Position numbers and translations under genes: made by a program
NCBI GenBank assembly: GCA_964391325.1
Contig: CAYMJM010000001.1
Span: forward strand, 1,438 to 65,437
Reading direction: 5' to 3'
From: an uncultured Candidatus Saccharibacteria bacterium
GTDB lineage: Bacteria > Patescibacteriota > Dojkabacteria > B142 > JAFGMG01
DNA length: 64,000 nt
Shown here: one piece after another, positions 12,326 to 64,000 of the stretch
How positions within the stretch are numbered: position 1 is the stretch's first letter
Layout of the letters: every line of letters starts with the position of its first letter
The notes under the pieces: model-generated
Seen by the model: the letters and a program-made list of their open reading frames with translations, nothing else
Told to the model about the DNA's origin: nothing
The model's database searches: none

Positions 12326-12326
12326 T

Positions 12327-22722: not shown

Positions 22723-24105
22723 TCACATTTTAGGTGTTAGTTCTGACTCCTTATTACTGATTTTTGTATCGTAAGCTGCTTTTTCTTCAGGAGTGAGCAA
22801 TCTGGAATCAAATTGCGGTTTAGTTTTCGTTGTGGTGTCTTTTTTCTTAAATAATTTAATTTTTTTCGTTTTAATTAAATAAGCGGTAACTAATCCAATT
22901 CCTGAAAGTATCAATAGTATTGCTATGATTAAAGTAAAGCTGTTTGTGCCATCTTCCTCTTGAGTGTCAGTGGTCGTATTAATGATAGTCAGTCTTTCGG
23001 TTGTGCTTTGCTCTGAAATCCCTGTCGCGATGACCTGAACTATGTTCTCTCCCTCCTGGAGCTCTACTGGTACTGTGAATGAGCCGTCATCAGAAATAGA
23101 AACAGCTTGGGTTAACTTTTCATCATTCAGGTATACAATGATTTCGGAGTCTAAATCATCTATCATACCTTCAATCTCATGTTCGGGCTGATCAACGTCA
23201 TATTCAAGTTCCTCGAATTTTAAAGTCGGACGTATAGAGTAAGTTGAAAATTCGGTTACATCAAAACTGACAGCTGAGGATCCTGTTAAAATAATATTTT
23301 CAACATTCTTTCCCGCTTCTGCATCATCTTTCATAATAGCCGGGGTATAATCACTGCCAAGTGATACAAAATTTAATCCATATAATGTAACTGTTGCTGG
23401 CTTATTAAGCTCTGGCATTAAATCGGTTGCTATTGATACTTCTCCAGGATGATCCATAAACACATATTGGTCCAGTTTATTCAACCTAGTTACTGTTTCG
23501 TTCATGCTTAAATCAATGCTGGTGTTGAAAACGATTTTGGCTATATCTGGAACATGCAACGTAAAGTTTTGTATAGATTTTAACTGATCTTTGGTATACC
23601 CTTGAAGTTTCGTTGTTGTGCTTGTAGGCAAGTAAAACCGAGTTGGTAACTTTATCTCTATCGTTTGTTCATTATCCTCCTTTTGATTTACAGTCTCTTT
23701 TTGTTTGGGTTTAACTCCAAAGTAAACTTCTACTTGCTCTCCAGCTTGTACGGTCTTATTTTTCGTAGCAATTTCTCCGGAGGTGAGTTCATAATTACTT
23801 CCTTCTGTGAGGTTAATTTTGATTGTATATTCACCCGCTTGTAGACCGGAGAAAACTGCTTTTCCTTGCACATCAGTATTTTTAGCTTGATCGTAATTAT
23901 TTGTCTTCAAAGAAATATTAATCCCTTGAATCAGATCTCCCTCTAGTGTTTTCGTATAGACTACTATAGTAGCTTTTTCCTCAATAGTTTCTTCTTCTGC
24001 AAAGACGGAGGCAGGAAATGGGATAGCTAGGGTAAGTAGAAGAAAGCATATTAAAACTTTTTTCATCTCTACAATATTAATAATTTTATTTAATGTGCTA
24101 GTCAA
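22723..24105 (-). CDS. cell-surface protein with carboxypeptidase-regulatory-like beta-sandwich domains and C-terminal membrane anchor
   Basis: Signal peptide (MKKVLICFLLLTLAIPFPASVFA), GxxxFxxLxxGxYT-type repeats, C-terminal TM helix plus charged tail; sits between ftsW and murG. Confidence 0.55.
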   Translation of the reverse strand: MTSTLNKIINIVEMKKVLICFLLLTLAIPFPASVFAEEETIEEKATIVVYTKTLEGDLIQGINISLKTNNYDQAKNTDVQGKAVFSGLQAGEYTIKINLTEGSNYELTSGEIATKNKTVQAGEQVEVYFGVKPKQKETVNQKEDNEQTIEIKLPTRFYLPTSTTTKLQGYTKDQLKSIQNFTLHVPDIAKIVFNTSIDLSMNETVTRLNKLDQYVFMDHPGEVSIATDLMPELNKPATVTLYGLNFVSLGSDYTPAIMKDDAEAGKNVENIILTGSSAVSFDVTEFSTYSIRPTLKFEELEYDVDQPEHEIEGMIDDLDSEIIVYLNDEKLTQAVSISDDGSFTVPVELQEGENIVQVIATGISEQSTTERLTIINTTTDTQEEDGTNSFTLIIAILLILSGIGLVTAYLIKTKKIKLFKKKDTTTKTKPQFDSRLLTPEEKAAYDTKISNKESELTPKM

Positions 24106-25279
24106 GGTTAGCGTATTTGCTTATATTTAACAAGAGACCTAAGCTTGCCAGAAGAACAATCATTGAACTTCCTCCATAGCTTATGAAAGGAAGAGCGATA
24201 CCTGTTAATGGGATGAGGCCAACATTTGCTGCTATGTTTAGGAATGCCTGAAACGATATCCATAATGTAATTCCGGAAGCAAGCAAAGCCCCGAGTTTAT
24301 CCGGGGCGTTTTGGGCTATTTTTAATCCGCGCAAAGATATGTATAAAAAGCAGGCTACTATAGCAGATGCTCCCAGTAAGCCAAGCTCTTCTGCTATAAC
24401 TGCGAATATGGTGTCACTAAAAGCTGTTTCTCCTAAATAATTAAATTTTTGCCTTGACTGTCCAAATCCCTCTCCAAGTATACCGCCAGCTCCGATTGCT
24501 GTTAGCATTTGACTTAGCTGATAGCCACTACCTAGTCTATCTTCCGGTGTGCCTGTTTTTAGGACTGTCAGATAGGTTTTGATACGGTTTATTCTGTAGC
24601 TTTCTAAGAAGGCTGCCAATAGACCAATAAGGGTAGAAGTTAGCATAATAGCGAAAAATCCAATATTGTGTATAAAGCCTTCTCCAGCCATATAGTACAT
24701 ACCTAATGCAACTATACCTATCAGGGCTGTAGTTCCTAAATCAGGCTCAATGAGTATCAGGACCAATATAATGGACAATATTAATAGGAAGGGCAACATC
24801 TCAACTACCAGGTAGTTACGTAAAGGGTTTTTATATTTTATAGCTTTGGTTTTTCTGGATAACCAGCTGGCAAGATATATGATAAGTGCAAGCTTTGTAA
24901 ATTCTGATGGCTGCGGATCAAATAGCGGCAGATCTATCCATCTTTTAGCTCCTCCTATTTCTACACCAGCAAAAAGTACAACTATTAACATTAGTATTGA
25001 AGCTGTAATAAGAATGGGGGCAACTTTGGGAAGTTTGTGGTAATCAAACCGGTACAGAAAGTATCCAGCTATAAGTCCAAGGATAATCCAAATAAATTGT
25101 CTATAGAAATAATACCACGAGTTTCTATCTTGGCTAAAAGCTACAATGACACTGGAGCTATACACCATGATCCATCCAAAAAGCGTAAGGAAACTCACTA
25201 TAATCAATAAATGAAAGTCAGGTTTTCCTGCTGTGCCTATACGAGTTCTTTTTTTGTATGTAGCCTTTCGTCTTCTCAT
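24098..25279 (-). CDS. ftsW: SEDS-family peptidoglycan glycosyltransferase FtsW/RodA
   Basis: 393 aa, 10 TM helices, conserved C-terminal PLTGIALPFISYGGSS block. Confidence 0.85.
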   Translation of the reverse strand: MRRRKATYKKRTRIGTAGKPDFHLLIIVSFLTLFGWIMVYSSSVIVAFSQDRNSWYYFYRQFIWIILGLIAGYFLYRFDYHKLPKVAPILITASILMLIVVLFAGVEIGGAKRWIDLPLFDPQPSEFTKLALIIYLASWLSRKTKAIKYKNPLRNYLVVEMLPFLLILSIILVLILIEPDLGTTALIGIVALGMYYMAGEGFIHNIGFFAIMLTSTLIGLLAAFLESYRINRIKTYLTVLKTGTPEDRLGSGYQLSQMLTAIGAGGILGEGFGQSRQKFNYLGETAFSDTIFAVIAEELGLLGASAIVACFLYISLRGLKIAQNAPDKLGALLASGITLWISFQAFLNIAANVGLIPLTGIALPFISYGGSSMIVLLASLGLLLNISKYANLD

Positions 25280-41832: not shown

Positions 41833-42978
41833 TTAGGCAATAAAATATAGCCATAATCCAACCAAAGCACAGACTATGCCAGCAAGCCAGAATCTCATAG
41901 TTACCTTTTCTTCATTCCACCCTGCTACTTCAAAGTGATGGTGGAGGGGGGCCATTTTGAAGACTCTCCTTCCGATAGTTCTTCGGGCTACTCCCTGTAT
42001 TAACGAACTACCTACCTCAGCTACAAAGGGAAATCCAATTACAGGCAATAGCATAGGAACTCGAAGTTCTAATGCAATAGTAGCTAAAAGCGCTCCTAGC
42101 GAAAGCGATCCGACGTCTCCCATTTGAAACCTGGCAGGAGGTATGTTGAAGTATAGGTACGACATTAAAGAAGCCATTACAGAGATGGTCAATAAGGTCA
42201 TTGGCATCATCTCTGTCGGTGCATCACTTAGGTAAGGTTGTAATATTTCTTGGTTAAAAGATATGGCAAAGAGAGCTCCAAATGCTGGGAGCAATAACCC
42301 TGCTGCTAAAGCATCCATTCCGTCTGAAAGATTGACAGCATTAGTCATAGCGACTACCACAAATACAACAAAGGGGATCATTAAGAAACCAATATCTATT
42401 GTTCCTAAACCAAAAAATGAGAGCTCTCCTGGATTGGTCCAGCCAGATTCAAAAAATAGCCACCAGGCCACAAGTAACCCAGCTAATGATTGTACAATGA
42501 CTTTTTCATGCGCTTGGATACCTTTGCCCGGGTTAGAACCTAAGAGGTAGAAGAATCTTTTATAGGTCAACCACGGTAGTAAAAGGATATATTTAATTCT
42601 CTGTACTTTACTTTTGTGAACTTTAATTAGTGTAACTACTCTATCGAGGTGCATTACTTTACGCTCTTTTCCGTAAATATTTAGAATGTCATCAAAAGCT
42701 CCGAGCAATGCTGAGACAAAGAATACCAACAAGGGAATCTTGGTAACATCATTCCAGTTTGCAATAACGTTCGTGAATAAAACGCTTACTACTATGATTA
42801 ACCCACCCATTATAGGGGTACCTACCTTTAATTTTCTTTTCTCAATAAGCGTAGAAAAGTCAATATCTATTTTCCTAGTAATCCCAAACTCATAAAGCAG
42901 TCGTATGATTGGGAATGCTATAAGAAAACTAAAAAAAAGATTGAGTATGGCAAATGTGGTAATTGTCTCGAAATTCAT
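41833..42978 (-). CDS. mraY: phospho-N-acetylmuramoyl-pentapeptide transferase
   Basis: 381 aa, 10 TM helices, conserved MraY cytoplasmic loops (NAVNLSDGMDALAAG; HHHFE). Confidence 0.9.
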   Translation of the reverse strand: MNFETITTFAILNLFFSFLIAFPIIRLLYEFGITRKIDIDFSTLIEKRKLKVGTPIMGGLIIVVSVLFTNVIANWNDVTKIPLLVFFVSALLGAFDDILNIYGKERKVMHLDRVVTLIKVHKSKVQRIKYILLLPWLTYKRFFYLLGSNPGKGIQAHEKVIVQSLAGLLVAWWLFFESGWTNPGELSFFGLGTIDIGFLMIPFVVFVVVAMTNAVNLSDGMDALAAGLLLPAFGALFAISFNQEILQPYLSDAPTEMMPMTLLTISVMASLMSYLYFNIPPARFQMGDVGSLSLGALLATIALELRVPMLLPVIGFPFVAEVGSSLIQGVARRTIGRRVFKMAPLHHHFEVAGWNEEKVTMRFWLAGIVCALVGLWLYFIA

Positions 42979-43144: not shown

Positions 43145-43360
43145 ATGGCTCAAAGATTGCTAAAAAAGTTAATAGCTCCTATGCAGCAAGTACTGCTACA
43201 AAGAGGTCTGTGCCCTGCCTGTACAAGGAGACTCGATGATATAAAACATAGAGATCCACGACCAAATAACACTGTGAGAGTTCAGTGTGAATGTGGTCGT
43301 ATCTATATACTAGACGTAACAACTGATACATATAGAAGAGCTATGCTGTCAGAAGTCTGA
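43145..43360 (+). CDS. small zinc-ribbon protein, unknown function
   Basis: 71 aa, CPAC ... CECG pairs. Confidence 0.35.
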   Translation: MAQRLLKKLIAPMQQVLLQRGLCPACTRRLDDIKHRDPRPNNTVRVQCECGRIYILDVTTDTYRRAMLSEV

Positions 43361-44918: not shown

Positions 44919-45980
44919 TTATCTATGATATAACATGTACTTTGTCCCTCTTCCCTGCCCTTCTATTTTTAAAAGTTTTTTTTCCACTAATTCTGTTAGG
45001 TCTCTATACGCAGTCATTGTACTTACATCCATCATATGAACGTAATCCTCTCTTTTAACTGTTGGAATGGTTTGCAGGTACCTTAGTATTTTTAACTGTC
45101 TTTTATTTAGATCTAGAAAGGGTTGTTTAGAACCTTTTTCTTCGTCACGAACCGATTTTCGCATCTCTTCTTTTGTTTCTCTCATATCAGAGGCAAGATT
45201 TTTAGTAAGCCTCTCTAGCCAGATGGTGATGTTCTTCCCTTCTGTTTTTCCCGTATTATTTTTAATTTGATTCCAGGCATCTAAATACTCATCTTCATAT
45301 ACGTCAAAATTTCGGGAAGTTGGGAGGTAAGATTTCGCGACATATCCATTTTTATACAGTAAATAATCGGCTATTGCTATTGCCGTTAGTTTATTTGCAA
45401 AAAGAAGAGGACAGATTTCGATAAACTTCTCAATGAATACACCTACTCTTAAAAGGTCATGCACTTTGGACATGCTGTTCTTGTACCAGTCAATTAAAAG
45501 TGCTATTTGCTGTTGGACCTTCATAGGCTCTATTGATTCATCTCTTAAAGTTGCCCAGTTTTCTAGGGTAAGGTCCACACCCTCTCCGCCAGTTCTAAAT
45601 TTAGCCTCCCAGCTCTCTCGCCAGTCAGTCAGCAAAATTTTATTTAAGTGCAGAATAATGTTTAAATCTATATCTACATAAGTGTCTGAAATATTGGATC
45701 TGGTAAACTCTAAGACATTTCTATAGTTATTTAGAACTGTGCCTCTAATATCTTCAGTAACAACTCTTTTCCCTTCGCTGACTTTTTCTGCATCTCTTAG
45801 GGTTAAGTTTACATTTAAAATATGCGCGAAGTGAAACAAGTCTAAAGTTTTTGCTCTTTGGCTTAGTCTATTCCTGGTGCGTGTAGAAAAAACGGTATTT
45901 TCAACAGCTTGTTTGTCAATTTCAAGTTTGACTATGTTATTTAAGATATTATCTGTGATGGTATAGTTAGGCTCGTACAT
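44919..45980 (-). CDS. Fic/DOC-like protein with degenerate active-site motif and C-terminal winged HTH
   Basis: Helical core resembles the Fic fold, but the canonical HPFx(D/E)GNGR is replaced by CPLLFANKL; C-terminal wHTH (KILRYLQTIP...YRDLTELVEKKLL); immediately downstream of tRNA-Thr. Confidence 0.35.
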   Translation of the reverse strand: MYEPNYTITDNILNNIVKLEIDKQAVENTVFSTRTRNRLSQRAKTLDLFHFAHILNVNLTLRDAEKVSEGKRVVTEDIRGTVLNNYRNVLEFTRSNISDTYVDIDLNIILHLNKILLTDWRESWEAKFRTGGEGVDLTLENWATLRDESIEPMKVQQQIALLIDWYKNSMSKVHDLLRVGVFIEKFIEICPLLFANKLTAIAIADYLLYKNGYVAKSYLPTSRNFDVYEDEYLDAWNQIKNNTGKTEGKNITIWLERLTKNLASDMRETKEEMRKSVRDEEKGSKQPFLDLNKRQLKILRYLQTIPTVKREDYVHMMDVSTMTAYRDLTELVEKKLLKIEGQGRGTKYMLYHR

Positions 45981-46024: not shown

Positions 46025-46097
46025 AGCTGGTTGTGAGAGTCGAACTCACGACCTATCCCTTACGAAGGGAGTGCTCTACCAACTGAGCTAAACCAGC
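46025..46097 (-). tRNA. tRNA-Thr(CGT)
   Basis: Acceptor GCTGGTT/AACCAGC, D-arm GCTC/GAGC, anticodon loop TTCGTAA, T-arm GTGAG-TTCGACT-CTCAC; one C-U mismatch at 27:43; no encoded CCA. Confidence 0.8.
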
Positions 46098-46172: not shown

Positions 46173-46835
46173 TCAATGAACTGGCTGATCTGTAGTTTTT
46201 ATAAGCTGTGCGTTGTAGGCATCTAGTATGTATGTTGTTACAGGCGTATTCTTTTTATCCCCTGCTGTACTTATTTCTTCTATTTTCCAAACATAGCCGT
46301 AGTCTTCTGTTTCTCCTAAATACATGCTGTAATAATTAGCTTGAGGGTCAAGGCCATTGGCTACAGCACTTTTATATATGACGCTCGAATTCAAAACTCT
46401 ATTATAATCTTTGGGGTAACTTATATTCTCGTATCGTAAGTCGTCCTCGTTAATTTTTTCAGAGTTCTTTAATGGATCGACAATAACTTCTCCTTCTTTA
46501 TATTGAACAGTAAGTATAGAATATTTAATTTTAGAGTAATAAATACAATCCCATGTGTAAAATTTTCCTTCGTCAACTCCTAGCAACCCAAATTGCGTAG
46601 AATCTGGCGCAATCCCAGTGCAGCTATATAGCCTGGCATCAGAAGACCACTGTTCTGCTTTTTTAGAAGTACTAATAACAGCTTCGTAGCTATCACGTTC
46701 ATCATATTCAGGAGATGTGGCAAGGTTATTCTGGCTAGTCTTTTTACTGCTTATGTCAAGCAGTAAAAAAGCGCCTAATCCAAGTAGAATAATCAGAAAA
46801 ATTCCTGTAGCTATTTTTATTAATTTAGGGTTCAT
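46173..46835 (-). CDS. membrane-anchored extracytoplasmic protein, unknown function
   Basis: 220 aa, N-terminal TM (IATGIFLIILLGLGAFLLL) then Tyr/Asp-rich soluble domain. Confidence 0.45.
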   Translation of the reverse strand: MNPKLIKIATGIFLIILLGLGAFLLLDISSKKTSQNNLATSPEYDERDSYEAVISTSKKAEQWSSDARLYSCTGIAPDSTQFGLLGVDEGKFYTWDCIYYSKIKYSILTVQYKEGEVIVDPLKNSEKINEDDLRYENISYPKDYNRVLNSSVIYKSAVANGLDPQANYYSMYLGETEDYGYVWKIEEISTAGDKKNTPVTTYILDAYNAQLIKTTDQPVH

Positions 46836-47145
46836 AATGATTATATAAAAATGTAGTTTAATATACTATAAATTAAAGTTAAGATTATATAGTGTTTTAT
46901 CTTAATACTTACAAATCTAAAATGCTCTATATTAGAAGATTTTTGACATTAGAGGTGCACTCCCCACTAAATGTCTAGGCGAGACAATGACTAAACTACC
47001 TTGGAAGGTTTACTGATTGACCAGTATACTCTCCCCTCACAAAACCATAATCAGTACTGACTAGCTTTAAATCCTCTTGTGTTTTCCATGTGGCGTTTGG
47101 GGACTACAAAAGTCGTTTATTTGTTTCCCTAATTCGTAGCTTATC

Positions 47146-47667
47146 TTAATTATATCTGAATCTAACTTTCTGGGTCTTCTCTCTAGTACTGACATAAGCG
47201 ACAATGTCTATATCAGGTGAGGCTAGTTGAACCATAGTTCCTACGCCAGGCTGCTCATATAGACTGACACCTGGAATTTCCTGCTTTTCAACTTGTTTGA
47301 TAAGTTCGTTGTATTGAGCGTCTTCAGTATAAAAGTCAACATCACCTAGGTACTGTCCGTATGGTGTTGGATCGGGCTTTCTTATATACAAGTAAGTATA
47401 AGCTACTTCAGGCGCATCCCTGTTTGCTGGAAAAATTATTGGCTCATGTAATCTAAAATATTTACGGTTTGGCTCGCTAGAAGCCTCGGTTAGCTGAGTA
47501 CGTAATTTGACTAGAAATTCATACTCATTATCAAAGTGACAAAACACTCCTATGTTACCTGGATTAGGGAAGTAATGATTGAAGGATTGCTTACATAGTT
47601 TATAGGCAGAATAGTGAATGTATTTAATGCGTTTTAACAATTCATCCGCTGTGTTAATTGGGGTCAT
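47146..47667 (-). CDS. hypothetical cytoplasmic protein
   Basis: 173-aa ORF starting 20 nt downstream of tRNA-Gly(CCC); no motifs. Confidence 0.4.
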   Translation of the reverse strand: MTPINTADELLKRIKYIHYSAYKLCKQSFNHYFPNPGNIGVFCHFDNEYEFLVKLRTQLTEASSEPNRKYFRLHEPIIFPANRDAPEVAYTYLYIRKPDPTPYGQYLGDVDFYTEDAQYNELIKQVEKQEIPGVSLYEQPGVGTMVQLASPDIDIVAYVSTREKTQKVRFRYN

Positions 47668-47686
47668 AGGTTTGTATTGATAAAAA

Positions 47687-47759
47687 AGCGAACGACGAGA
47701 TTCGAACCCGCGACCTCTTCCTTGGGAAGGAAGCGTTCTACCAACTGAACTACGTTCGC
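47687..47759 (-). tRNA. tRNA-Gly(CCC)
   Basis: Acceptor GCGAACG/CGTTCGC, anticodon stem CTTCC/GGAAG, loop TTCCCAA, T-arm GCGGG-TTCGAAT-CTCGT (two G-U pairs), discriminator U, followed by a T-run. Confidence 0.85.
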
Positions 47760-47805
47760 TTATACCTAGATATTAATACTTTTCCGTTGATTTGAAAAGA
47801 GACTG

Positions 47806-48309
47806 TCAAACTTTATAAGCAATAAGTTTCCCTGTCTTTTTTATTTGTTCAAAGCCTTCTAAATGAAACGTGTTAGTTATAATTCGGGTCCCTGGTCTAA
47901 GCTCCTGCTTAAATTTTCCTGCCAAATCAGACATAGTTGCCGGTAATAGGTAACAAAAAATCACATCATAGTCTCTTAGATTAACTTTATATAGATTTTT
48001 TCTTTCCACTTGAACGTCTGTGTGTGTGATTGCAGCCTTCACTTTTGTATAAGTCACAAGGAAAGGGTTTAATTCAACACCAACTACAATCTTGGCATGC
48101 TTGCTGGCCTCAAATAAAATTCTACCATCTCCCGAGCCTAAGTCTATAACTTTATCATCTTTACCGATATCAGCTATCTCAACCATATTCCTAACTAATT
48201 TTTTATTTGAAGGATAGTAAGGGGGAGATCCAAATACCGGCGGGATAAACCAGTAGCACAAAAAAATCGCATATGTAAAAAGTAATAGTAACAAAAGTAT
48301 TTCAACCAT
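47806..48309 (-). CDS. class I SAM-dependent methyltransferase
   Basis: N-terminal TM, motif I VIDLGSGDGRILF, acidic motif II. Confidence 0.7.
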   Translation of the reverse strand: MVEILLLLLLFTYAIFLCYWFIPPVFGSPPYYPSNKKLVRNMVEIADIGKDDKVIDLGSGDGRILFEASKHAKIVVGVELNPFLVTYTKVKAAITHTDVQVERKNLYKVNLRDYDVIFCYLLPATMSDLAGKFKQELRPGTRIITNTFHLEGFEQIKKTGKLIAYKV

Positions 48310-49271
48310 CAGATTCCACTAATAATACAAACAGGACTAGAATATCTTCTTTTCTTGCCTAGGGCGCGTATGAGTCCTGCAAAGGAGAGGCAGCCATTAT
48401 AAGTTAGGTCTGGCAGGTTAGTCTTTTTTTGAAGGAATGTTGTAGCTTTAATAATTTCTTTTGTTGATAAAACCCACCCTGAGCCCTGGGAATTTTTAAT
48501 TATTTCTATAACTTCTTCTTTTCTTTTTGCTACCTTATCTACAATTGCATCTGCAGGGCTATCTCCCGACTGCTCGAAGGCCATATCAAACCCTTTTGCC
48601 ATAGGATGAACTTTGGTTGTTTGGCATATATGAATTTGGGGTATTGGTATATCTATATCATTATAGCCTTTTGCCAACCCGACTGTGCTTGTTCCGGAGC
48701 TGCAGGGGATAAAAATTGCGTCGGTTTGAGGAGCTTCTTTTGCAAGTTCGTATGAAATTGTTTTAAACCCTTCGATCGCTATTTTATCTTCCGAGCCTCT
48801 GAGATTAATATAGTTCCCCTGGTTACTAAACTTTATTGCATCAGACTTAGCTCTTTCAGAGAAATTCAAAGTAATTCTTGGGTTGGTGTTAATAATGTGC
48901 TCTAAGTGTTTTAACTTATTTTTATTTATTTTATTGGATACAAAAATTGCTAACTTGATATCAGTAAGGTTGACATAAGCAGCAGCTGAGTTTGCAGCAT
49001 TGCCTGACGATGATATAAGCAGTTTTTTCTTCCCATGGGTGTTGTAATATGAGACCTGAAAAGCAAGGCTTCTATCCTTAAAAGATTTATTTGGGTTCAT
49101 GGTTTCCAGTTTCAGTAATACTTTTTGTGTACTTTTAGCTTCAACCCCTAGGTGTTTTAGTTCATATCTATCAAGATAAATTGTATAAATATTAGTTTGC
49201 CCTTCTCCCAAGCTCAGCTGGAACTTTTCGGGAATTTGAGCGCTGATTTTAGGGAACCTCCAAATTGACAT
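48309..49271 (-). CDS. fold-type-II PLP-dependent enzyme, threonine-synthase-like
   Basis: PLP-lysine motif NPNKSFKDRS, Gly-rich SSGNAANS loop. Confidence 0.65.
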   Translation of the reverse strand: MSIWRFPKISAQIPEKFQLSLGEGQTNIYTIYLDRYELKHLGVEAKSTQKVLLKLETMNPNKSFKDRSLAFQVSYYNTHGKKKLLISSSGNAANSAAAYVNLTDIKLAIFVSNKINKNKLKHLEHIINTNPRITLNFSERAKSDAIKFSNQGNYINLRGSEDKIAIEGFKTISYELAKEAPQTDAIFIPCSSGTSTVGLAKGYNDIDIPIPQIHICQTTKVHPMAKGFDMAFEQSGDSPADAIVDKVAKRKEEVIEIIKNSQGSGWVLSTKEIIKATTFLQKKTNLPDLTYNGCLSFAGLIRALGKKRRYSSPVCIISGI

Positions 49272-49373
49272 TTTGTAGTGAAATTTATTAATAATTTGCG
49301 TTAATATATTGCTTTGCTTATCATAGCAAAGGACAGGGTAAAATAAAATGTATTATTTTTTATCTAGAATGTT

Positions 49374-49556
49374 ATGGAAGAGAGTTTAATTACTACAGGA
49401 CAATCCTACGTCTGTCTGGAATGCAAGAATGAAAACACTCTCGATAGTACAAATATTGGAGATGTCGTAGAATGTGATTTTTGCGGAATAGAATATGAAA
49501 TTATTGAGGAGGAAGGGAAAAATTATAAACTGGTTATCATAGAGGAAGAAAAATAG
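49374..49556 (+). CDS. LysW-like zinc-ribbon amino-group carrier protein homologue with acidic C-terminal tail (EEEK)
   Basis: 60 aa; CLEC ... GDVVECDFCGIEYEI mirrors the LysW CPxC...GEhhxCxxCGAxLEV pattern; acidic tail IIEEEGKNYKLVIIEEEK; first gene of a three-gene operon. Confidence 0.55.
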   Translation: MEESLITTGQSYVCLECKNENTLDSTNIGDVVECDFCGIEYEIIEEEGKNYKLVIIEEEK

Positions 49557-49582
49557 TAGAATAAGGAAAGTATTTTAAGCAA

Positions 49583-51034
49583 ATGTCTAAAGTTGACTTC
49601 TTCCTTAAACAAATAAATTTTAAGCTCAAAGATAAACCTTTATTTTACATATGTAATGATCCGGAGAGGGCCTTGGGGCTTGAGGCTTTGCTGAAAAACT
49701 ATCATATCGTGTGCGTGGATGACTCGGATTTGTTTACTTATATAAAACTTCAAATTGGAAATATTTTCTCTCTGGAAAACCATGTTGGACAAAAAAATGC
49801 TCTCTTTAGAAGCTCAGCGAAGTTACTTGAAGAAGAGTCAGTAGCAGAGTATATCAATAACAATTCAAAGCAAAATGAAAGATTTTTTCAAACATTCAAA
49901 ATTTCTTCAAGATTTCAAAAATTAGCGGAAAGATACAATGCTACACTACTCAATACAACTTCGCAGCTAAACAAAAGCTTTGAGAATAAACTTAGGCAAT
50001 ATAGGTTACTAAAACAGTATGAAGTTAACTTTCCACCAACTTTAATATCCAAACTCAAAGAATTGGACTATCAGACTTTAGCAGATAAGCTAGGCAATAG
50101 TCTTGTTATTCAGTTTGACCGCGGCCACACAGGAACTGGAACGGTCTTTATCAATTCTATTGATGAATTTAAAAGTATACAGCAAAAATTTCCTGATAGA
50201 GAAGCTAGAGTTGCAAGTAGAGTAGAAGGATTCAGCTATACAGTTAATGCAGCAGTAAGCAGAAATGGAATTTATGTAGCAGGTTTGAGCTATCAAATAA
50301 CAGGAGTGCCTGAATTGACCCACTTGGAGGGAGGGACTGTAGGAAACGACTTTAGCTGCAGACAAGGTATTAGTTCCAAACTTAAGCAGCAAATTATAGA
50401 AGAGGTTACCAAGGTTGGGTTTGCTATGAAGGAAGCAGGATACAAAGGCTTATTTGGTGTTGATCTAATAGTTTCTTCTGATCAAGTGTATATAATTGAG
50501 GTTAATGCCCGACAGCCTGCGTCCGTTCCTTTTCATGCTAAGCTACAGCTAAGACAGGACGAGGTTCCACTGTCGATAATTCACATTATGGAATTTATGG
50601 ATCTAATTTATGATATAGATCCGATAGAATACTGTAACAAAGGCTTGGAGCCTGTTTCAGCAGGCCAACTGTTTCTGCGCAATGTTACTCCAGAACGATT
50701 TATAGTAAATGGTAAAATTAAAACTGGAGTTTATAGATTACAGAGTGATAACTCTGCCCTAATATTTAAAGAACATGGAACAGAAGTCAAAGCAAATACA
50801 ATATTTTTAGATGAAGAAAAAGATAAGCCTTTAATCTTTCAAAAGGAAGGGTACTCTATAGATTCAATTGAAGATGGAGGCTTTTTGATAGCGAGTCAGT
50901 TACAAGGAAAACAAGTTAATCAGGGAAATGAAATAGCACGAATTCAAGCATTACAGTCTCTGGTAGGTAAGGATGGTAAGCCTTTCCCGTGGGCTATAGA
51001 AGCATTACAGGCAATATACGAATATTTACGTTAG
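49583..51034 (+). CDS. ATP-grasp ligase (LysX/RimK-like) with about 170-aa N-terminal extension
   Basis: C-terminal half has the ATP-grasp pattern (QFDRGHTGTGTVFI; VGNDFSCRQG; GLFGVDLIV...YIIEVNARQ); 26-nt gap after the LysW-like gene. Confidence 0.7.
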   Translation: MSKVDFFLKQINFKLKDKPLFYICNDPERALGLEALLKNYHIVCVDDSDLFTYIKLQIGNIFSLENHVGQKNALFRSSAKLLEEESVAEYINNNSKQNERFFQTFKISSRFQKLAERYNATLLNTTSQLNKSFENKLRQYRLLKQYEVNFPPTLISKLKELDYQTLADKLGNSLVIQFDRGHTGTGTVFINSIDEFKSIQQKFPDREARVASRVEGFSYTVNAAVSRNGIYVAGLSYQITGVPELTHLEGGTVGNDFSCRQGISSKLKQQIIEEVTKVGFAMKEAGYKGLFGVDLIVSSDQVYIIEVNARQPASVPFHAKLQLRQDEVPLSIIHIMEFMDLIYDIDPIEYCNKGLEPVSAGQLFLRNVTPERFIVNGKIKTGVYRLQSDNSALIFKEHGTEVKANTIFLDEEKDKPLIFQKEGYSIDSIEDGGFLIASQLQGKQVNQGNEIARIQALQSLVGKDGKPFPWAIEALQAIYEYLR

Positions 51035-51043
51035 TTTCATAAT

Positions 51044-51808
51044 ATGATTCATAAAACAATTCATCCAAAAGCCCAAGAAGCAATTCACAGGTACTTTAAC
51101 CTTCCTTTTGGCAGAAAGAGGGTAAAATGCCCTTATTATATGAATATTAAAAAGGAAAGGGCTGGTCTACGAGTAATGGTAGGTAAAGGGAGTGTAGCCG
51201 AGATAGTGCACGAGACAAAAGTATGGGCACAGCTAAAAGGTTTTAATCTAAGTCGGAAAAGCGAAGAGGAAATTAGGGAGTTTATGATTAAGAAGGGAAT
51301 AGGAATTGACTGCTCGGGTTTTATTGCACATATTTTAGATCATTGGTTTAAATCTGAAAACAGAGGAAGAGTATGGAACAACCTTAAATTTCAGGATAAC
51401 AGTATATACGCTCGATTTCGTAGATTTTTGAGACCTATTGAAAATATAGGTGCTAACTTGCTCACTTCTGATTTGAATTGCATACATATAGATAATTTTG
51501 ATGATATAGGGCCTGGAGATCTGATTAGAGCGAAAGGAAAGCAAAAAAATGCTCACCATGTAGCAATTATTACTGATACTCATAAGAGTGAAAGCGGCAA
51601 ACTTAAAAAGTTTGACTATGTGCATGCACATAGATTTTATGAGGAAGAAAATGGAGTTAGAAAAGGTACAGTAATAATCTCTAAACCAGAAGGGTCTCTA
51701 AAAGATCAGGAATGGCGGGATACTTACAATGGGAAAAATTATATGCTTGAGGATCTGAAAGTAAACTACGAGGATAATGGCATTAGAAGGCTAAAAGCAT
51801 TAGCATAA
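51044..51808 (+). CDS. cytoplasmic NlpC/P60-family (papain-like) cysteine hydrolase
   Basis: GIDCSGFIAHIL catalytic-Cys motif and downstream NAHHVAIITD His; no signal peptide; 9-nt gap after the ATP-grasp gene. Confidence 0.55.
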   Translation: MIHKTIHPKAQEAIHRYFNLPFGRKRVKCPYYMNIKKERAGLRVMVGKGSVAEIVHETKVWAQLKGFNLSRKSEEEIREFMIKKGIGIDCSGFIAHILDHWFKSENRGRVWNNLKFQDNSIYARFRRFLRPIENIGANLLTSDLNCIHIDNFDDIGPGDLIRAKGKQKNAHHVAIITDTHKSESGKLKKFDYVHAHRFYEEENGVRKGTVIISKPEGSLKDQEWRDTYNGKNYMLEDLKVNYEDNGIRRLKALA

Positions 51809-51898
51809 AAACTATCCTAGGAATAGCGCGTTTTTTACTAAATATTGCTTGTAAAGCAGGGTAGTATGTTATTATAGAGTTTTATTACTTTCATTTGA

Positions 51899-53281
51899 AT
51901 GGTGGGGTCTGATAGGGAAATATTCAACTTTGTAGACGTAGAGACTACAGGAACTAAGAGTGCCGAGGATAGAATTATAGAAGTAGCTGCTATTAAAACG
52001 CAGGGAGATAAAATTCTTGATATTTACACTGCCTTGGTTAATCCTGGTTTTAGACCATCAAGCTTCATATTGGGACTGACAGGAATTAAATATGAAGACC
52101 TGGAAGTATCTAAACGCTTCCAAGATATAGCAGGAGAGCTTTATGAATTTTTGAGTCAGGGTACTTTTGTTGCCCATAATGCAAGGTTTGATTATTCTTT
52201 TTTAAAGAATGAGTTCCTTAGAGCAGGATTTAGCTTTCTACCAAAGATTCTATGTACGGTTAGGCTCTCTAGCGCACTCTACCCTCACTTGAAAAAACAT
52301 AACTTGGAATCCTTAGTTAAACGTCTGCATATTAAATTGGAAAACCACCACCGAGCTTATGATGATGCGTATAGCCTTTTTGAGTTTATAAAGCTCGAAA
52401 GATGTAATCGACAAGATCACGATTTCCACAGAATTATAAGTGAGTTAACTGGCTCGCCAGCTATCCCCAAGCTAATTAGCAAGGCTGATCTAGACAGCAT
52501 TCCTGATACTACAGGAGTTTATTTATTCTTAAATGCACAAGCCTATCCTATTTATATTGGAATGAGTAAGAGCATCAGGCAAAGAGTTTTATCACATTTT
52601 TACCAGAACTTAAGCAGGAGCAAAGAAATGAAAATTTCCACAAGCCTCAATAAAATTCATTATATAGAAACAGCTGGTATCTTGGGGGCACAACTTCGGG
52701 AGTCGCAATTAATCAAGCAATACCAGCCTTTGTATAACCGAAAACTTCGCAGAAATGACTACTTAACTTGTGTTATCGCAGAGGAAAATGAGAATGAGTA
52801 TATTAACCTGTCTATTGGGCGTAGGAAAAACATAAATCAACAAAATTTGCATTACATAGTTGGTATTTACAATAGTGTAAAGCAAGCCAAAGCTAATTTA
52901 GCTGAAATTGCAAAGGAACATAAACTATGTCCTCAATACCTAGGGTTGGAGCCTAGATCTCGCAACAGTTGTTTTAATTATTATCTGAAGCTGTGCTCAG
53001 GTGCGTGCCGTCATGATATCCCAGTAGAAGAATATAACAGAAGTGTGTACAAAGCTTTTAACAAAACACGCTTGTGTGCCTGGCCTTATGGAGGTGAGAT
53101 AGAGGTAGTTGAGGAGACAAACAAATTTAAGGAGACTTTCGTTATAGACAAATGGGTAGTTAAGAGTGCTAGGTTTGAAGGAGACTACATAAGAAGTCAA
53201 CCTACCCTTGAAGCAGGTCGATTTGACCTAGATACTTATAAAATTCTGCATTCCTTTTTAAATCGCGAGTTTACCACTTAG
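51899..53281 (+). CDS. DnaQ-like 3'-5' exonuclease fused to GIY-YIG (UvrC N-terminal-like) nuclease domain
   Basis: Exo I FVDVETTG, Exo II FVAHNARFDYSFL, Exo III HRAYDDA; then GIY-YIG GVYLFLNAQAYPIYIGMSKSIRQR...E. Confidence 0.75.
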   Translation: MVGSDREIFNFVDVETTGTKSAEDRIIEVAAIKTQGDKILDIYTALVNPGFRPSSFILGLTGIKYEDLEVSKRFQDIAGELYEFLSQGTFVAHNARFDYSFLKNEFLRAGFSFLPKILCTVRLSSALYPHLKKHNLESLVKRLHIKLENHHRAYDDAYSLFEFIKLERCNRQDHDFHRIISELTGSPAIPKLISKADLDSIPDTTGVYLFLNAQAYPIYIGMSKSIRQRVLSHFYQNLSRSKEMKISTSLNKIHYIETAGILGAQLRESQLIKQYQPLYNRKLRRNDYLTCVIAEENENEYINLSIGRRKNINQQNLHYIVGIYNSVKQAKANLAEIAKEHKLCPQYLGLEPRSRNSCFNYYLKLCSGACRHDIPVEEYNRSVYKAFNKTRLCAWPYGGEIEVVEETNKFKETFVIDKWVVKSARFEGDYIRSQPTLEAGRFDLDTYKILHSFLNREFTT

Positions 53282-61480: not shown

Positions 61481-64000
61481 TTAAGGATTTGGCGTAAATC
61501 TCACATCATTACCTCCACCTGAGATAACTCGAATGAAGTAACCTTGTTTTTCCAATAAGTTGAAGTCATTTCCGAAAAGAATATCTCCCTCATACACAAC
61601 ATTTGTGTAGAGGCTGCTATCATATTTTGATACTGTATCAGCTGTGATTCCTTTAGATTTCATATCTTTTAGCAAATTTTCAGCTGTATATTGCTTTTCA
61701 TTGGTATAAACCCCAACTAAGTTCCATCCGTTGCTTACCCTGAAAGGCACAGGTTCGTCAAACCTGTTTCCCTGTAAATTTACAGTTGCTACTTGATAGT
61801 TTAAGACGAAGTATCCCTGTCCGGGTATTATATTAAAATCATTCGAGTATTCGATATCGCCTTCTCTTTTTGTATACATCTGAAATCCAGAGTCTGTGTA
61901 TCTGGCTATGTGCTTAATATCCGCACCTTGTTCATTAAAATGATCTATCAATTTACTTGCGGTATCAATACTCTGATTAGAAATAACTGGAAATGCTATC
62001 AAGCTCCAGCCGAGATTCAAATTATACGTGGCGACCTCAGATTCTTTTTTTATTTGAAGCTGGGTGTAGTCGATAAAGTATTCCTCGTCTGCATCTTTTA
62101 TACCATTTGCGTTAGCATCGATAAATAGTCTGATTTCAGCTTTTTGAGAGCCTTCGAGGTTTACAGCTACTTCCGAAATAGATTGTTCAAAAGTATCGTC
62201 TGTATATATCTTATAAAAACCTGATTCCCCTACCTCCAGCTTGGCATCGCTATCTCCTAGCACCTGAGTGGATGCCACGGATACCACTGAGTCTTTTGGT
62301 TCTGGATTATACCCCTGATCTGGCAAAGGAGAATCCGAAAAAGGATTGCATGCAGGACCGTTAGTATTGGCCAGGTTACTTCTGTCCTCTTCACACTGAC
62401 CATCACCATCTGCATCTCTGATCCTTATGAGCTCTGTTGGGCTCCCGTTATTGTAATATAGTCTACCAATATAAGCTCTCTGGTTACATTCTTTCCATTC
62501 GCATTGTCTACTTTCAGGTAGCATACTAGGCATATTAAATTCCCTTCTGTCCTTGCACTCGTATCTTCTGTCTGTTACTACTACTTCGCTTAAATCCAGT
62601 GGATTACATATAAGTTCGCCAGTATCAGATAAAGAGGTATTCTTTACTATACGAAGGGTACCTTCATGGCAAATCAGTAAATTTAGTGGTAAATAAATGC
62701 CACTTTCCTCAACCTTACACATGTTTACGGGAGAGTTAATCGACTGACTTGGTGTGCTTGCACTGCCCGTTTCTGGCACAACATTCCCAGACCCGTCATC
62801 TAGAGGTGGGCTGTTGCTACCAGTCTGACTGGAACCGGTAGATGGAGGTTGACTGCTAGACTGTCCTGTGTCTGATGCAGGTGTCTCTGTAGCAGATTTT
62901 TCTCCGCACCAGCAGTATGCATCATTTTTATAGGCCCCCCATGATAAACCACAGGCAGAATTTGACCCTGGTTCTCCACTGCGGCACCTGTCCGCGGCTA
63001 TACAACCCACATTGTGAAAATATAAATAGCCTGGAGCGCACTTTTTGCTAGAACTCTGCTCTTGAGTCTGTGCTGCAGGTTGAGTCTGACCCTGTGTCTG
63101 TCCTTGGTTCTTTTTAACACAATCCTCTCGCTCGAAACAGTTTCCATACTGGGCGTAGTGCTGCCATTGCCCGTCGACACATTGATACATTAAGCAATCA
63201 CTTTGCGAGTTACAGTGAAAGGACTCATCCTCTGCCCAACCATGGCATTTATTCCCGGCTGACACAGTTGGAATGAGGGAGCTATAAGATGTTTTAACTA
63301 TTTCTCGTTCGACTATAAACTGATCAGCAGGTTTGTCGTATTGAGGATTAATATCATAGGTTAAACTACTGCCATTCTCATTCATTACCGTAAATTGCTC
63401 GATATCAGTTTCTTCATTGATCTCTAGATATTTCTGAAGGGCCACATCCTTTAGGGTATTTACATCTAAACTCCACGTAGCTTTCTCAGAAATATAATTT
63501 GATATGACTTGGCTTTTGATTGCGCCATCTTTATCTTTTACAACCATCTTTACAATAGCCTCTTTAGGTAAGGAGTCATCTGGATACTTTACATTTCCGT
63601 AAGCTGGATCAGGTAGTCTGAGCTCCTCTGTAACAGTGGGGGTGGTAAAGGAAACAAGTTTATTATCAAAAGCATCTTTATCTGTCGTTCCTAGTCCGCT
63701 TGCAATCCTAAATTGGTACTCAGTTTCTGGCTTTAAGGCTCTTACAGTAACATGATGCGTCCTACGCTCCTGGGAGCCAGACTCTTTTAATACATACATC
63801 CCTTCATTATTTTGCACCATATCTCTGTCATCATGGAAAGCTTCCAGACCGCGTTTAGACAAAACAGGTAATTTAGACCATGTGCCTTCTGATTTCTCGC
63901 GGACATAGACAATTCCTTCGCTTGGCTCATCGGTGTACCAGGTTATGGTAACACCTGAATCTGTAAGATTTGTGATATCAATATATTTGGGGGATACTGT
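61481..64000 (-). CDS. large secreted/cell-surface protein (FN3-like N-terminal modules, Cys-rich core, S/T/P/Q-rich linker, two C-terminal about 100-aa repeats); 5' end lies beyond the window
   Basis: ORF is open to the window edge with no stop upstream of 63862; FN3-like GVTITWYTDEPSEGIVYV and ETEYQFRIASG; low-complexity QGQTQGQTQ / SSQPPSTGSSQTGS; repeated GNDFN(I/L)...QGYF blocks. Confidence 0.6.
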   Translation of the reverse strand, partial: TVSPKYIDITNLTDSGVTITWYTDEPSEGIVYVREKSEGTWSKLPVLSKRGLEAFHDDRDMVQNNEGMYVLKESGSQERRTHHVTVRALKPETEYQFRIASGLGTTDKDAFDNKLVSFTTPTVTEELRLPDPAYGNVKYPDDSLPKEAIVKMVVKDKDGAIKSQVISNYISEKATWSLDVNTLKDVALQKYLEINEETDIEQFTVMNENGSSLTYDINPQYDKPADQFIVEREIVKTSYSSLIPTVSAGNKCHGWAEDESFHCNSQSDCLMYQCVDGQWQHYAQYGNCFEREDCVKKNQGQTQGQTQPAAQTQEQSSSKKCAPGYLYFHNVGCIAADRCRSGEPGSNSACGLSWGAYKNDAYCWCGEKSATETPASDTGQSSSQPPSTGSSQTGSNSPPLDDGSGNVVPETGSASTPSQSINSPVNMCKVEESGIYLPLNLLICHEGTLRIVKNTSLSDTGELICNPLDLSEVVVTDRRYECKDRREFNMPSMLPESRQCEWKECNQRAYIGRLYYNNGSPTELIRIRDADGDGQCEEDRSNLANTNGPACNPFSDSPLPDQGYNPEPKDSVVSVASTQVLGDSDAKLEVGESGFYKIYTDDTFEQSISEVAVNLEGSQKAEIRLFIDANANGIKDADEEYFIDYTQLQIKKESEVATYNLNLGWSLIAFPVISNQSIDTASKLIDHFNEQGADIKHIARYTDSGFQMYTKREGDIEYSNDFNIIPGQGYFVLNYQVATVNLQGNRFDEPVPFRVSNGWNLVGVYTNEKQYTAENLLKDMKSKGITADTVSKYDSSLYTNVVYEGDILFGNDFNLLEKQGYFIRVISGGGNDVRFTPNP

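Follow-up and report, generated by a model that had tools for sequence, protein, structure and literature searches.

A LysW-like zinc-ribbon gene in a conserved ATP-grasp, PLP-enzyme and NlpC/P60 gene module of Patescibacteria, with a possible tie to peptidoglycan precursor synthesis

Gene content, conservation and context

The stretch of DNA analysed here (the window, 64,000 nt) carries three co-directional genes, separated by gaps of 26 and 9 nt, that encode a zinc-ribbon protein (ZR), an ATP-grasp ligase (GRASP) and an NlpC/P60 hydrolase (P60). The initial annotation had described this arrangement, and the three-gene set is real; it is not, however, the complete unit, as two members on the opposite strand, a PLP enzyme and a methyltransferase, had been overlooked. 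The features of the locus are:

47806 to 48309, minus strand: methyltransferase gene, membrane-anchored class I SAM methyltransferase, accessory member
48309 to 49271, minus strand: PLP gene, fold-type II PLP enzyme, threonine-synthase-like
49312 to 49331, no strand assigned: palindrome CTTTGCT-TATCAT-AGCAAAG in the divergent PLP/ZR intergenic region
49374 to 49556, plus strand: ZR (60 aa), LysW-like zinc-ribbon protein, proposed carrier
49583 to 51034, plus strand: GRASP (483 aa), ATP-grasp carboxylate-amine ligase, PRK06524-like
51044 to 51808, plus strand: P60 (254 aa), cytoplasmic NlpC/P60-fold cysteine hydrolase

Relatives of GRASP were found in 429 species-level genomes, and those fetched were nearly all Patescibacteria (CPR). 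P60 lies immediately downstream of GRASP in 63 of 70 loci, and in some genomes the two are fused into one protein of ~739 aa. The PLP gene and the zinc-ribbon gene are divergently oriented and constantly side by side: ZR adjoins the PLP gene in essentially all assessable loci, GRASP-anchored or ZR-anchored. Among 50 genome loci the two are adjacent in 42, the others lying at contig edges or having a single gene inserted, and 20 of the 22 metagenome loci anchored on ZR show the same adjacency. Comparison of neighbourhoods across genomes showed that the small ORF is conserved, with ZR homologues in 51 loci, and that it co-occurs with the ATP-grasp gene, ZR sharing the GRASP-P60 neighbourhood in nearly all lineages. 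At one locus (L107) ZR and the PLP gene are present and GRASP and P60 are absent within 9 kb; at five GRASP loci (L021, L022, L025, L056 and L060) neither ZR nor the PLP gene occurs within 6 kb. The methyltransferase gene overlaps the end of the PLP gene by 1 nt; of 46 fully flanked loci, 23 have it placed between the PLP gene and GRASP, and roughly half of the lineages possess it. Some loci carry unrelated secreted or membrane proteins between module members, which gave no further enzymatic clue; other inserts, as judged by eye, are an apparent MltG-like protein and a probable protein-isoaspartate methyltransferase. No published description of the module was found in a literature search; it is apparently undescribed so far, as the initial annotation had suspected.

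Recurrent neighbours of the module are MraY, MurF, MurB, FemAB and an ATE-like transferase. At four loci (L106, L110, L111 and L112) the ZR, PLP and GRASP genes lie inside a mur operon, flanked by MraY or MurD on one side and by FtsW on the other; there the module occupies the position that murD has in E. coli. MurD adjoins the module in two of these four (L106 and L111), and MurE is found in the same operons as the module. A DgcN-like gene follows MraY at L061, L062 and L068, and an Amidohydro_3 gene is present at L106. In the Dojkabacteria, including this window, the module is 6.4 kb from MraY, amid housekeeping genes (hrcA-grpE-dnaK) and outside any mur operon. Since the module sits among genes for cell-wall precursors, its probable function is to produce or convert an amino acid destined for the wall.

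The divergent intergenic region between the PLP gene and ZR is 102 nt long and holds a perfect 7+7 palindrome. The palindrome is indeed located upstream of ZR; its proposed role as a conserved operator did not hold, as it is shared with one relative only and is statistically undistinctive (a single occurrence in the window, for a chance expectation of 0.48 at 2 mismatches). A look-alike, TTTGATATCATATCAAA, occurs at L013 only, and the other lineages carry unrelated AT-rich palindromes. The element is a possible candidate for a lineage-specific operator. Promoter and terminator scans of positions 47000 to 52100 remained at chance level, and an Rfam scan of the window returned five tRNAs and nothing else.

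The encoded proteins

The four-Cys zinc ribbon, the acidic tail and the C-terminus EEEK in place of Glu, all read earlier from the ZR sequence, were confirmed. ZR matches the Pfam family Zn_ribbon_LysW (PF21344) with 27.7 bits for a cut-off of 27, this domain is present in nearly all ZR homologues, and a tandem-domain relative (P0302) reaches 81 bits in the test for a LysW-type zinc ribbon. Against the PDB, the family profile retrieves LysW (3wwl_A, E 2.9e-5) and also 5k2m_E. By sequence homology ZR is a LysW homologue, and the suggested LysW likeness is upheld; some of its relatives bear the name 'lysine biosynthesis protein LysW' in the source databases, through automated annotation. The NCBIfam LysW models, with cut-offs of 53-75 bits, give 22-24 bits. 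The tail has the form ...[ILV][ILV]EEEK (...IIEEEK in the window protein, with variants DEGK, EEGK and SDMMK), and the terminal residue is Lys in all 51 locus homologues. A terminal K is found in 109 of the top 150 library representatives and a terminal E in 19; the latter often carry the classical ...EDWGE tail, and such sequences are distant matches only. ZR itself lacks the ...EDWGE tail with a cargo-bearing terminal Glu that marks members of the LysW/ArgW group. As its tail ends in Lys instead of Glu, the attachment chemistry must differ, through an amine or an alpha-carboxylate and not a gamma-carboxylate. ZR also lacks the beta-grasp fold with C-terminal Gly-Gly of CysO, MetO and ThiS, being a zinc ribbon that ends in Glu-Lys. 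A zinc ribbon is known from ThrC (as cited in PMC5906684). The reading of ZR as a detached N-terminal ribbon of ThrC was rejected on two grounds: the PDB chains matched by the profile were LysW and RNA-polymerase ribbons, with none from ThrC, and there was no match to NCBIfam ThrC models.

GRASP has the three canonical domains of an ATP-grasp fold plus a C-terminal beta domain, and its Lys and the E-x-N-x-R nucleotide/Mg2+ motif are present. Its assignment as an ATP-grasp ligase stands and its placement with LysX and RimK does not: the closest characterised relatives are MfnD and BesA (glutamate gamma-carboxyl-amine ligases) by sequence, and PylC, a top neighbour, and PurK by structure. MfnD and BesA join the gamma-carboxyl group of Glu to an amine; PylC acylates the epsilon-amino group of Lys. 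What had been taken for an extra N-terminal domain of ~170 aa is the ordinary pre-ATP-grasp domain. Models for Ddl and D-aspartate ligase gave no match at E 0.1 or better. PRK06524 relatives on Rhizobium and Chondrinema plasmids share ~23% identity with GRASP over 80-90% of its length, and no carrier gene was found near these plasmid-borne homologues. Since the distant proteobacterial relatives operate in a triad of PLP decarboxylase, ligase and C45 peptidase without a carrier gene, a carrier is not intrinsic to the ligase family.

The PLP enzyme matches Pfam PALP (1.4e-34) and its best PDB match is M. tuberculosis ThrC (2d1f, E 5e-12). Scores against NCBIfam ThrC models are at most 106 bits for cut-offs of at least 266 (e.g. 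106 versus 358), and TIGR00260 gives 47.3 bits versus 167.1. The Schiff-base Lys65 (SFKDR) is conserved. The N-S-x-N-P-x-R segment that binds the phosphate of O-phosphohomoserine is absent: aligned to M. tuberculosis ThrC, the NSxNPxR motif is replaced by GSEDKIA, and the family consensus keeps only nLrgS.D..a..G at this segment. Judged from these alignments, the enzyme is threonine-synthase-like and probably no bona fide ThrC. SbnA-type models match it weakly.

The methyltransferase gives weak matches to Pfam Methyltransf_31/25, DOT1 and PrmA, and its best NCBIfam match is the archaeal protein-lysine N-methyltransferase NF041081 (aKMT/FAM173-type; 66 bits, cut-off 200). An N-terminal TM helix, kept in nearly all of 31 homologous loci, is followed by a conserved (A/T)P(Y/F)YP(S/T) motif.

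P60 is, as first proposed, a cytoplasmic NlpC/P60 hydrolase with its catalytic Cys-His-polar triad intact. A conserved N-terminal domain of about 85 aa accompanies the papain-like alpha+beta fold of DL-endopeptidases. Its best structural neighbours are 2evr, CwlO, LytE and 3m1u, and the top structural matches are gamma-D-Glu-Lys/DAP endopeptidases; these neighbours suggest a specificity for gamma-D-glutamyl-Lys/DAP bonds. Known NlpC/P60 enzymes cut gamma-D-Glu that is linked to Lys or DAP through the alpha-amino group and not through the epsilon-amino one.

A possible carrier mechanism and competing explanations

We tentatively propose, short of holding it probable, that ZR, the PLP enzyme, GRASP and P60, with or without the methyltransferase, form one conserved module of four to five genes in the Patescibacteria, tied to peptidoglycan precursor synthesis; this guarded estimate applies to the module, the peptidoglycan tie and the carrier mechanism taken together. 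The observations behind it are the co-occurrence and fusion of genes, the homologies, the intact catalytic residues and the placement within mur operons; the mechanism as a whole is one that we infer. In an ATP-dependent step, GRASP would attach an amino acid (L-glutamate being the most plausible) through one of its carboxyl groups to the epsilon-amine of the Lys that terminates the carrier. Tethering through the carboxyl would leave the alpha-amino group of the cargo free, as PLP chemistry requires, and the polarity of attachment would be the reverse of that of LysW, where the terminal Glu carboxylate binds the amino group of the cargo. The PLP enzyme would transform the residue while it is tethered, and P60 would hydrolyse the isopeptide bond and regenerate the carrier. 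The methyltransferase, which has no role within this model, possibly N-methylates the terminal Lys. A precedent is MetM, a ThrC homologue that works on a carrier, MetO, together with a hydrolase, Mec.

Several hints point to glutamate as the cargo: the kinship of GRASP with MfnD and BesA, its structural likeness to PylC, the endopeptidase matches of P60, the cargo of LysW (natively Glu or aminoadipate), the adjacency of MurD (L106 and L111) and the DgcN-like and Amidohydro_3 genes. In the specific version that we favour, L-Glu would be loaded via its gamma-carboxyl group, the PLP enzyme would epimerise it and P60 would free gamma-D-glutamyl only, so that MurD would be fed with D-glutamate by a one-way process driven by ATP. 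The module would then be a CPR counterpart of LysW with reversed polarity, performing a carrier-templated, PLP-dependent deracemisation of L-Glu to D-Glu with D-specific release; spelled out to this degree, the proposal is unlikely. ATP-dependent one-way epimerisation giving D-Glu has a precedent in MurL. Against this version, we know of no fold-type II PLP enzyme that epimerises glutamate on a tethered substrate. The carrier model as a whole has against it the alpha-amino linkage cut by known NlpC/P60 enzymes, the location of the module outside mur operons in the Dojkabacteria, the loci that lack part of the gene set, the carrier-free triads of the distant ligase relatives and the methyltransferase, which it leaves without a role.

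A pair of enzymes acting on small molecules without a true carrier, which we regard as possible if rather unlikely, would have GRASP make and P60 break an amide on a free metabolite or a nucleotide-linked peptidoglycan precursor, for instance a D-amino-acid dipeptide or a branch on the Lys3 side chain (compare Ddl/VanX, the D-aspartate ligase Aslfm with its racemase, and glutathionylspermidine synthetase/amidase). The PLP enzyme would provide an unusual amino acid, and the zinc ribbon would do no more than assist or regulate the PLP enzyme as a subunit. This does not account for a LysW homologue whose terminal Lys stays invariant and whose tail stays acidic over more than 100 diverged clusters, nor for a ZR that remains near GRASP-P60 in nearly all lineages; the lack of Ddl and D-aspartate-ligase matches to GRASP also speaks against it. 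The invariant Lys would be accounted for if the PLP enzyme and/or the methyltransferase altered the epsilon-amine of this encoded residue itself, for example by a beta- or gamma-replacement yielding a lysinoalanine-like diamino-dicarboxylic acid, after which P60 would remove the modified Lys and GRASP would add Lys back to ...EEE, as in the tubulin tyrosine ligase/vasohibin cycle; the cycle would supply MurE with a diamino acid, or would be regulatory. The protein-lysine methyltransferases as best named relatives of the methyltransferase, the weak SbnA-type matches of the PLP enzyme (SbnA-type reactions place an amine nucleophile on a PLP-bound aminoacrylate), the GRASP-P60 fusion, which suits two enzymes sharing one C-terminus, and MurE in the same operons all agree with such a cycle, which we nevertheless judge clearly improbable.

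Sulfur transfer of the CysO/CysM/Mec or MetO/MetM/Mec kind would require GRASP to convert the ZR C-terminus into an acyl-phosphate and then a thiocarboxylate, the ThrC-like enzyme to condense it with O-phospho-serine or O-phospho-homoserine, and P60 to hydrolyse the ZR-amino acid amide so formed, freeing cysteine or homocysteine. The gene set here covers the four roles as well (a carrier, an ATP-dependent activator, a ThrC-like enzyme, a peptidase), and in the known case MetM is a ThrC homologue, the C-terminus of a small carrier is the nucleophile and a dedicated hydrolase takes part. The route is nonetheless very improbable: ZR is a Lys-ending zinc ribbon and not a beta-grasp protein ending in Gly-Gly, to our knowledge no ATP-grasp enzyme makes thiocarboxylates, sulfur-transfer genes are not recurrent in the neighbourhood, the Arg/Asn motif that binds phosphate in ThrC is not conserved, and the mur-operon context would be left unexplained. 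Canonical lysine or arginine biosynthesis through LysW/ArgW has in its favour the homologous zinc-ribbon domain and the database names. It is refuted by the features tested, in line with the initial view that this is not a canonical LysW pathway: the terminus is Lys and not Glu, the LysW models stay far below their cut-offs, GRASP is not of the LysX/ArgX type, and when ORFs from 80 loci were clustered, none of the recurrent families was flagged as a LysZ/Y/J/K-type partner.

Should the carrier model be correct, the LysW/amino-group-carrier principle would gain a new attachment chemistry, with terminal Lys for Glu, new partner enzymes (a PRK06524-type ligase, a ThrC-like PLP enzyme and release by NlpC/P60) and a new role in peptidoglycan precursor supply, in a huge, largely uncultured and metabolically minimal bacterial radiation. 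A function would be given to four or five genes now called 'hypothetical', which hundreds of CPR species have kept and which lie within their mur operons, and the automatic labels 'lysine biosynthesis protein LysW', 'threonine synthase' and 'biotin carboxylase' would be corrected. Were the D-glutamate reading to hold, it would add a previously unknown route to peptidoglycan's universal D-Glu, with its genes taking the place of murD in the mur operon.

Comparison with known systems

The LysW/ArgW amino-group carrier protein (AmCP) systems of Thermus, Sulfolobus and Thermococcus (LysW-LysX-LysZ-LysY-LysJ-LysK), and the AmCP secondary-metabolite pathways, share with the module a homologous zinc-ribbon domain, an acidic C-terminal tail, an ATP-grasp ligase alongside, a potential product-releasing hydrolase and the same logic of tethering, modification and release. 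They differ in the tail residue (Glu there, invariant Lys here), in the ligase (RimK/LysX there, the PRK06524/MfnD/BesA/PylC-like group here), in release (the M20 metallopeptidase LysK, whereas a Cys-His NlpC/P60 enzyme is proposed here), in the modifying enzymes (kinase, reductase and aminotransferase, as against a ThrC-like PLP enzyme) and in genomic context, which here is peptidoglycan synthesis. CysO-CysM-Mec and MetO-MetM-Mec likewise combine a fold-type II PLP enzyme, a small carrier with a reacting C-terminus, as proposed here, an ATP-dependent activator and a dedicated hydrolase; their beta-grasp Gly-Gly thiocarboxylate carrier, E1-like activator and JAMM metalloprotease belong to families that are not represented here.

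The plasmid triads of the PRK06524 'biotin carboxylase-like' type contain a homologous ligase preceded by a PLP enzyme and followed by a hydrolase with a cysteine nucleophile. Their PLP enzyme, however, is of the Orn/Lys/Arg-decarboxylase type (fold I), their hydrolase is of the C45/AAT Ntn type, a zinc-ribbon gene is missing and the setting is catabolic (polyamines or amino acids). Glutathionylspermidine synthetase/amidase (GspSA) has its domains in the opposite order and acts on free small molecules, with neither a carrier nor a PLP enzyme. Finally, if the D-glutamate model holds, the outcome would be the same as with the alternative MurD2/MurL route and MurI/Dat: the stem peptide would have D-Glu as its second residue, obtained through a one-way L-to-D conversion that consumes ATP and is encoded beside MurD. 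With a PLP enzyme proposed to act on a protein carrier, this would be an analogy, in which nothing is homologous.

Genes and conservation of the module

The three co-directional ORFs of the initial annotation were confirmed in the window, with gaps of 26 nt and 9 nt. They are conserved together, but the unit is wider than the proposed three genes and includes a divergent PLP enzyme and methyltransferase.

Module genes in the window
47806-48309 (-): MT, membrane-anchored methyltransferase, divergent upstream of gene 1
48309-49271 (-): PLP, ThrC-like fold-type II PLP enzyme, divergent upstream of gene 1
49374-49556 (+): ZR (gene 1), LysW-like zinc-ribbon protein, 60 aa
49583-51034 (+): GRASP (gene 2), ATP-grasp ligase, 483 aa
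51044-51808 (+): P60 (gene 3), NlpC/P60-fold cysteine hydrolase, 254 aa

Composition is uniform in the window (GC ~36-37%), with local GC rising to 0.43 in its last 2 kb. Its best named relatives assign it to Candidatus Dojkabacteria (WS6, Patescibacteria/CPR). Homologues of the small ORF, whose conservation had been in question, were found in 51 of the fetched genome loci, 22 metagenome loci and 206 clusters (at 50% identity, from a library of 1.84 billion proteins). This wide set, the invariant residues and the independent assemblies in which the ORF is also called as a gene indicate that ZR is a real gene.

The search with GRASP covered 185,579 species genomes, 429 of which carried a relative, and 80 loci were fetched. 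The gene neighbourhood, proposed as a check, was found to be conserved: P60 lies directly 3' of GRASP in 63 of the 70 assessable loci and ZR adjoins PLP in 42/50, the remainder being contig edges or cases with 1-3 inserted genes. GRASP-P60 fusions of ~720-740 aa occur in at least four clusters. The commonest order is ZR(-), PLP(+), optionally MT(+), GRASP(+) and P60(+), MT being present in 23 of the 46 fully flanked loci; inversion of the PLP-MT block in the window, L001, L013 and L086 places ZR immediately before GRASP. When metagenome loci were anchored on ZR, PLP was adjacent in 20 of 22 (the other two are contig ends), and GRASP and P60 follow wherever the contig is long enough. Adjacency seen from both anchors identifies the PLP enzyme as the closest partner of ZR. 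Combined, these results make it very probable that the module genes form one unit.

The protein components

ZR carries Cys14/17/34/37, contains 16 acidic and 4 basic residues, and terminates in ...VIIEEEK, so that the four-Cys layout, acidic tail and terminus initially described are present. It barely reaches the Pfam LysW zinc-ribbon model (27.7 bits, threshold 27); a tandem-domain relative scores 81 bits, and almost all ZR homologues contain the domain. With the ZR-family profile, matches were obtained to the LysW proteins of Thermus (3wwl; E 2.9e-5) and Thermococcus. By these profile comparisons ZR is homologous to LysW; the expected LysW/ArgW match holds at the level of the domain and the Thermus profile but not at that of the curated LysW equivalogs, whose cut-offs lie far above its scores. 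The invariant positions comprise the four Cys, several Glu and the terminal residue, which is Lys in 51/51 locus homologues, mostly as [ILV][ILV]EEEK, with the lineage variants DEGK, EEGK and SDMMK. In the top 150 representatives of the library, the final residue is K in 109 and E in 19, and many of these 19 have a classical ...EDWGE tail. All named family members are Patescibacteria. Long variants of 106-142 aa occur in a Dojkabacteria sublineage (L018, L023, L027, L032, L047, L049; genes at ~4000-4500), with a low-complexity N-terminal extension, a ~40-aa insert separating the two zinc knuckles, and tails of the form ...EPS[DE]M[MI]K, in which the EEE run is gone and the terminal Lys retained.

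GRASP, with invariant K136, E306, N308 and R310, is a competent ATP-grasp ligase with an intact active site. It is matched over its whole length by the uncharacterised PRK06524 'biotin carboxylase-like' family, and among characterised proteins it is closest in sequence to the tyramine-L-glutamate ligase MfnD and the propargylglycine-L-glutamate ligase BesA rather than to the LysX/RimK-type enzymes first suggested. As the PRK06524 match is full-length, the N-terminal 130 residues are a normal pre-ATP-grasp domain; the ATP-grasp assignment thus stands but the extra N-terminal domain does not. The unusual portion is a beta-rich C-terminal domain (~residues 360-483).

P60 falls under the Pfam NlpC/P60 threshold. 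Its catalytic Cys/His pair is retained as invariant C90 (within D-C-S-G) and H172, with a polar residue at position 194, and its active site is intact. Neither a signal peptide nor a TM segment was found in it, in agreement with the initial annotation. The N-terminal domain is conserved, with invariant P30, Y31, G47, K48 and G49. The PLP enzyme retains the Schiff-base lysine (SFKDR), and its active site is likewise intact; it scores far under all ThrC equivalog cut-offs and is devoid of N-S-x-N-P-x-R, the phosphate-binding segment of ThrC. The methyltransferase has a conserved N-terminal transmembrane helix, and its best named relative, at a score far under cut-off, is an archaeal protein-lysine methyltransferase.

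Peptidoglycan context

Recurrent neighbours of the module are MraY, MurF, MurB, FemAB and an arginyltransferase-like (aminoacyl-tRNA transferase) protein. ZR representatives gave access to four extra CPR lineages, and in all four the unit lies within a mur/dcw operon.

Cell wall genes in the window
11531-13637 (-): adjacent MurT-like (436 aa; MurT_C domain) and GatD-like (264 aa) proteins, lipid II isoglutaminyl synthase pair
21518-22717 (-): MurG
24098-25279 (-): FtsW
41833-42978: MraY

Gene orders in the four additional lineages
L106: MraY-x-amidohydrolase-NlpC/P60-MurD-[ZR]-PLP-GRASP-FtsW-MurG-MurC-MurB
L110: FtsI-MurE-(267-aa ORF)-MurC-MurA-MurF-MraY-[ZR]-PLP, then contig end
L111: NlpC/P60-x-MurD-[ZR]-PLP-GRASP-FtsW
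L112: FtsI-MurE-(ATE-like)-MurC-MurA-MurF-MraY-[ZR]-PLP, then GRASP, FtsW

By E. coli gene order the unit occupies the position of murD, and murD itself adjoins it in two of the four (L106, L111). In some lineages insertions adjoin the GRASP-P60-MraY or P60-MurD genes: a DgcN-like (DUF1611) gene 3' of MraY in L061, L062 and L068, and an Amidohydro_3 amidohydrolase (PRK09061-like) beside P60-MurD at L106 11347-12921. DgcN is of the D-glutamate N-acetyltransferase family. Both insertions represent families tied to N-acyl-D-glutamate metabolism, PRK09061 through an older CDD name. The MurT/GatD pair suggests that D-iso-glutamate in the organism's stem peptide is amidated, as in Lys-type Gram-positive walls. 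A peptidoglycan role for the module is slightly favoured.

Other features of the window were recorded. The ftsW-murG pair contains an unusual insert, a 460-aa ORF (22723-24105, -) with only weak glucodextranase-B and S59-autopeptidase-like matches. A second small Cys-rich ORF (43154-43360, +; CxxC...CxC, ~68-71 aa) lies directly 5' of UvrC, has no family match and occupies the same position in 11 related loci (cluster c16). Family matches are also absent for a 220-aa ORF with an N-terminal hydrophobic segment (46173-46835) and a 173-aa ORF (47146-47667); flanked by tRNA genes (46025-46097, 47687-47759), the two are located between a conserved 353-aa HTH protein (44919-45980) and the module. 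Directly 3' of the module, a PRK07883-type fusion of a DEDDh (DnaQ-like) 3'-5' exonuclease and a GIY-YIG/Cho-like nuclease (51899-53281, +) is followed by hrcA-grpE-dnaK. At E 1e-5, Pfam gave no match for a 793-aa ORF (61481-63862, -).

Proposed carrier mechanism, alternatives and known systems

With the conserved module, the LysW homology, the intact GRASP, P60 and PLP active sites, the GRASP-P60 fusion and the mur-operon context established, a carrier mechanism has about an even chance. Glutamate or aminoadipate is the native cargo of the LysW family. PLP enzymes require a free alpha-amino group, so LysW-style attachment through the cargo amine would block their chemistry; the terminal Lys amine of ZR could instead hold the cargo carboxyl. 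This would be the type of reaction catalyzed by MfnD and BesA, which link the gamma-carboxyl of Glu with an amine, and by PylC, which joins a carboxyl to the epsilon-amine of Lys. Gamma-D-glutamyl-Lys/DAP bonds are the typical targets of NlpC/P60 enzymes. The ligase relatives, LysW cargo, NlpC/P60 specificity and position at or next to MurD lead to the most economical specific model, itself rather unlikely: GRASP would gamma-glutamylate Lys60 of ZR using L-Glu, the PLP enzyme would epimerise the tethered Glu and P60 would free the D-form only, giving an ATP-driven, one-way supply of D-Glu to MurD. Such D-selective release would let a ligase be fused to a hydrolase of 'the same' bond without a futile cycle.

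A rival to the carrier mechanism is that there is no true carrier, GRASP and P60 being a small-molecule or UDP-precursor ligase/amidase pair, with ZR serving the PLP enzyme as an accessory subunit. It is favoured by L107, where ZR-PLP is present with no GRASP or P60 within 9 kb, and by triads on Rhizobium and Chondrinema plasmids (L108 4217-9414, L109 2525-9514). There, distant GRASP homologues (PRK06524 type, annotated 'biotin carboxylase') are conserved with a ~900-aa Orn/Lys/Arg-decarboxylase-like PLP protein and a C45/AAT-family peptidase, and no carrier gene was found around them; they look like another uncharacterised PLP/ligase/cysteine-hydrolase set. A further rival keeps the terminal Lys as the working site, in a clip-and-recharge cycle yielding a modified lysine or diamino acid. 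A sulfur-carrier analogue is a weak candidate, as the fold and terminus of ZR are wrong and sulfur-transfer genes are not recurrent nearby. Canonical LysW lysine biosynthesis is refuted, as the initial annotation had anticipated.

No description of the module was found in the literature searched on its protein families and on Patescibacteria/CPR, and source databases label its genes as hypothetical, 'LysW', 'ATP-grasp domain-containing protein' or 'C40 family peptidase'. MetM/MetO/Mec provide a precedent for parts of the carrier model, and MurL for an ATP-dependent one-way epimerase. The module resembles LysW/AmCP systems in carrier-protein-templated amino-acid chemistry, but its tail, ligase clade, modifying and release enzymes and biological setting set it apart from them.
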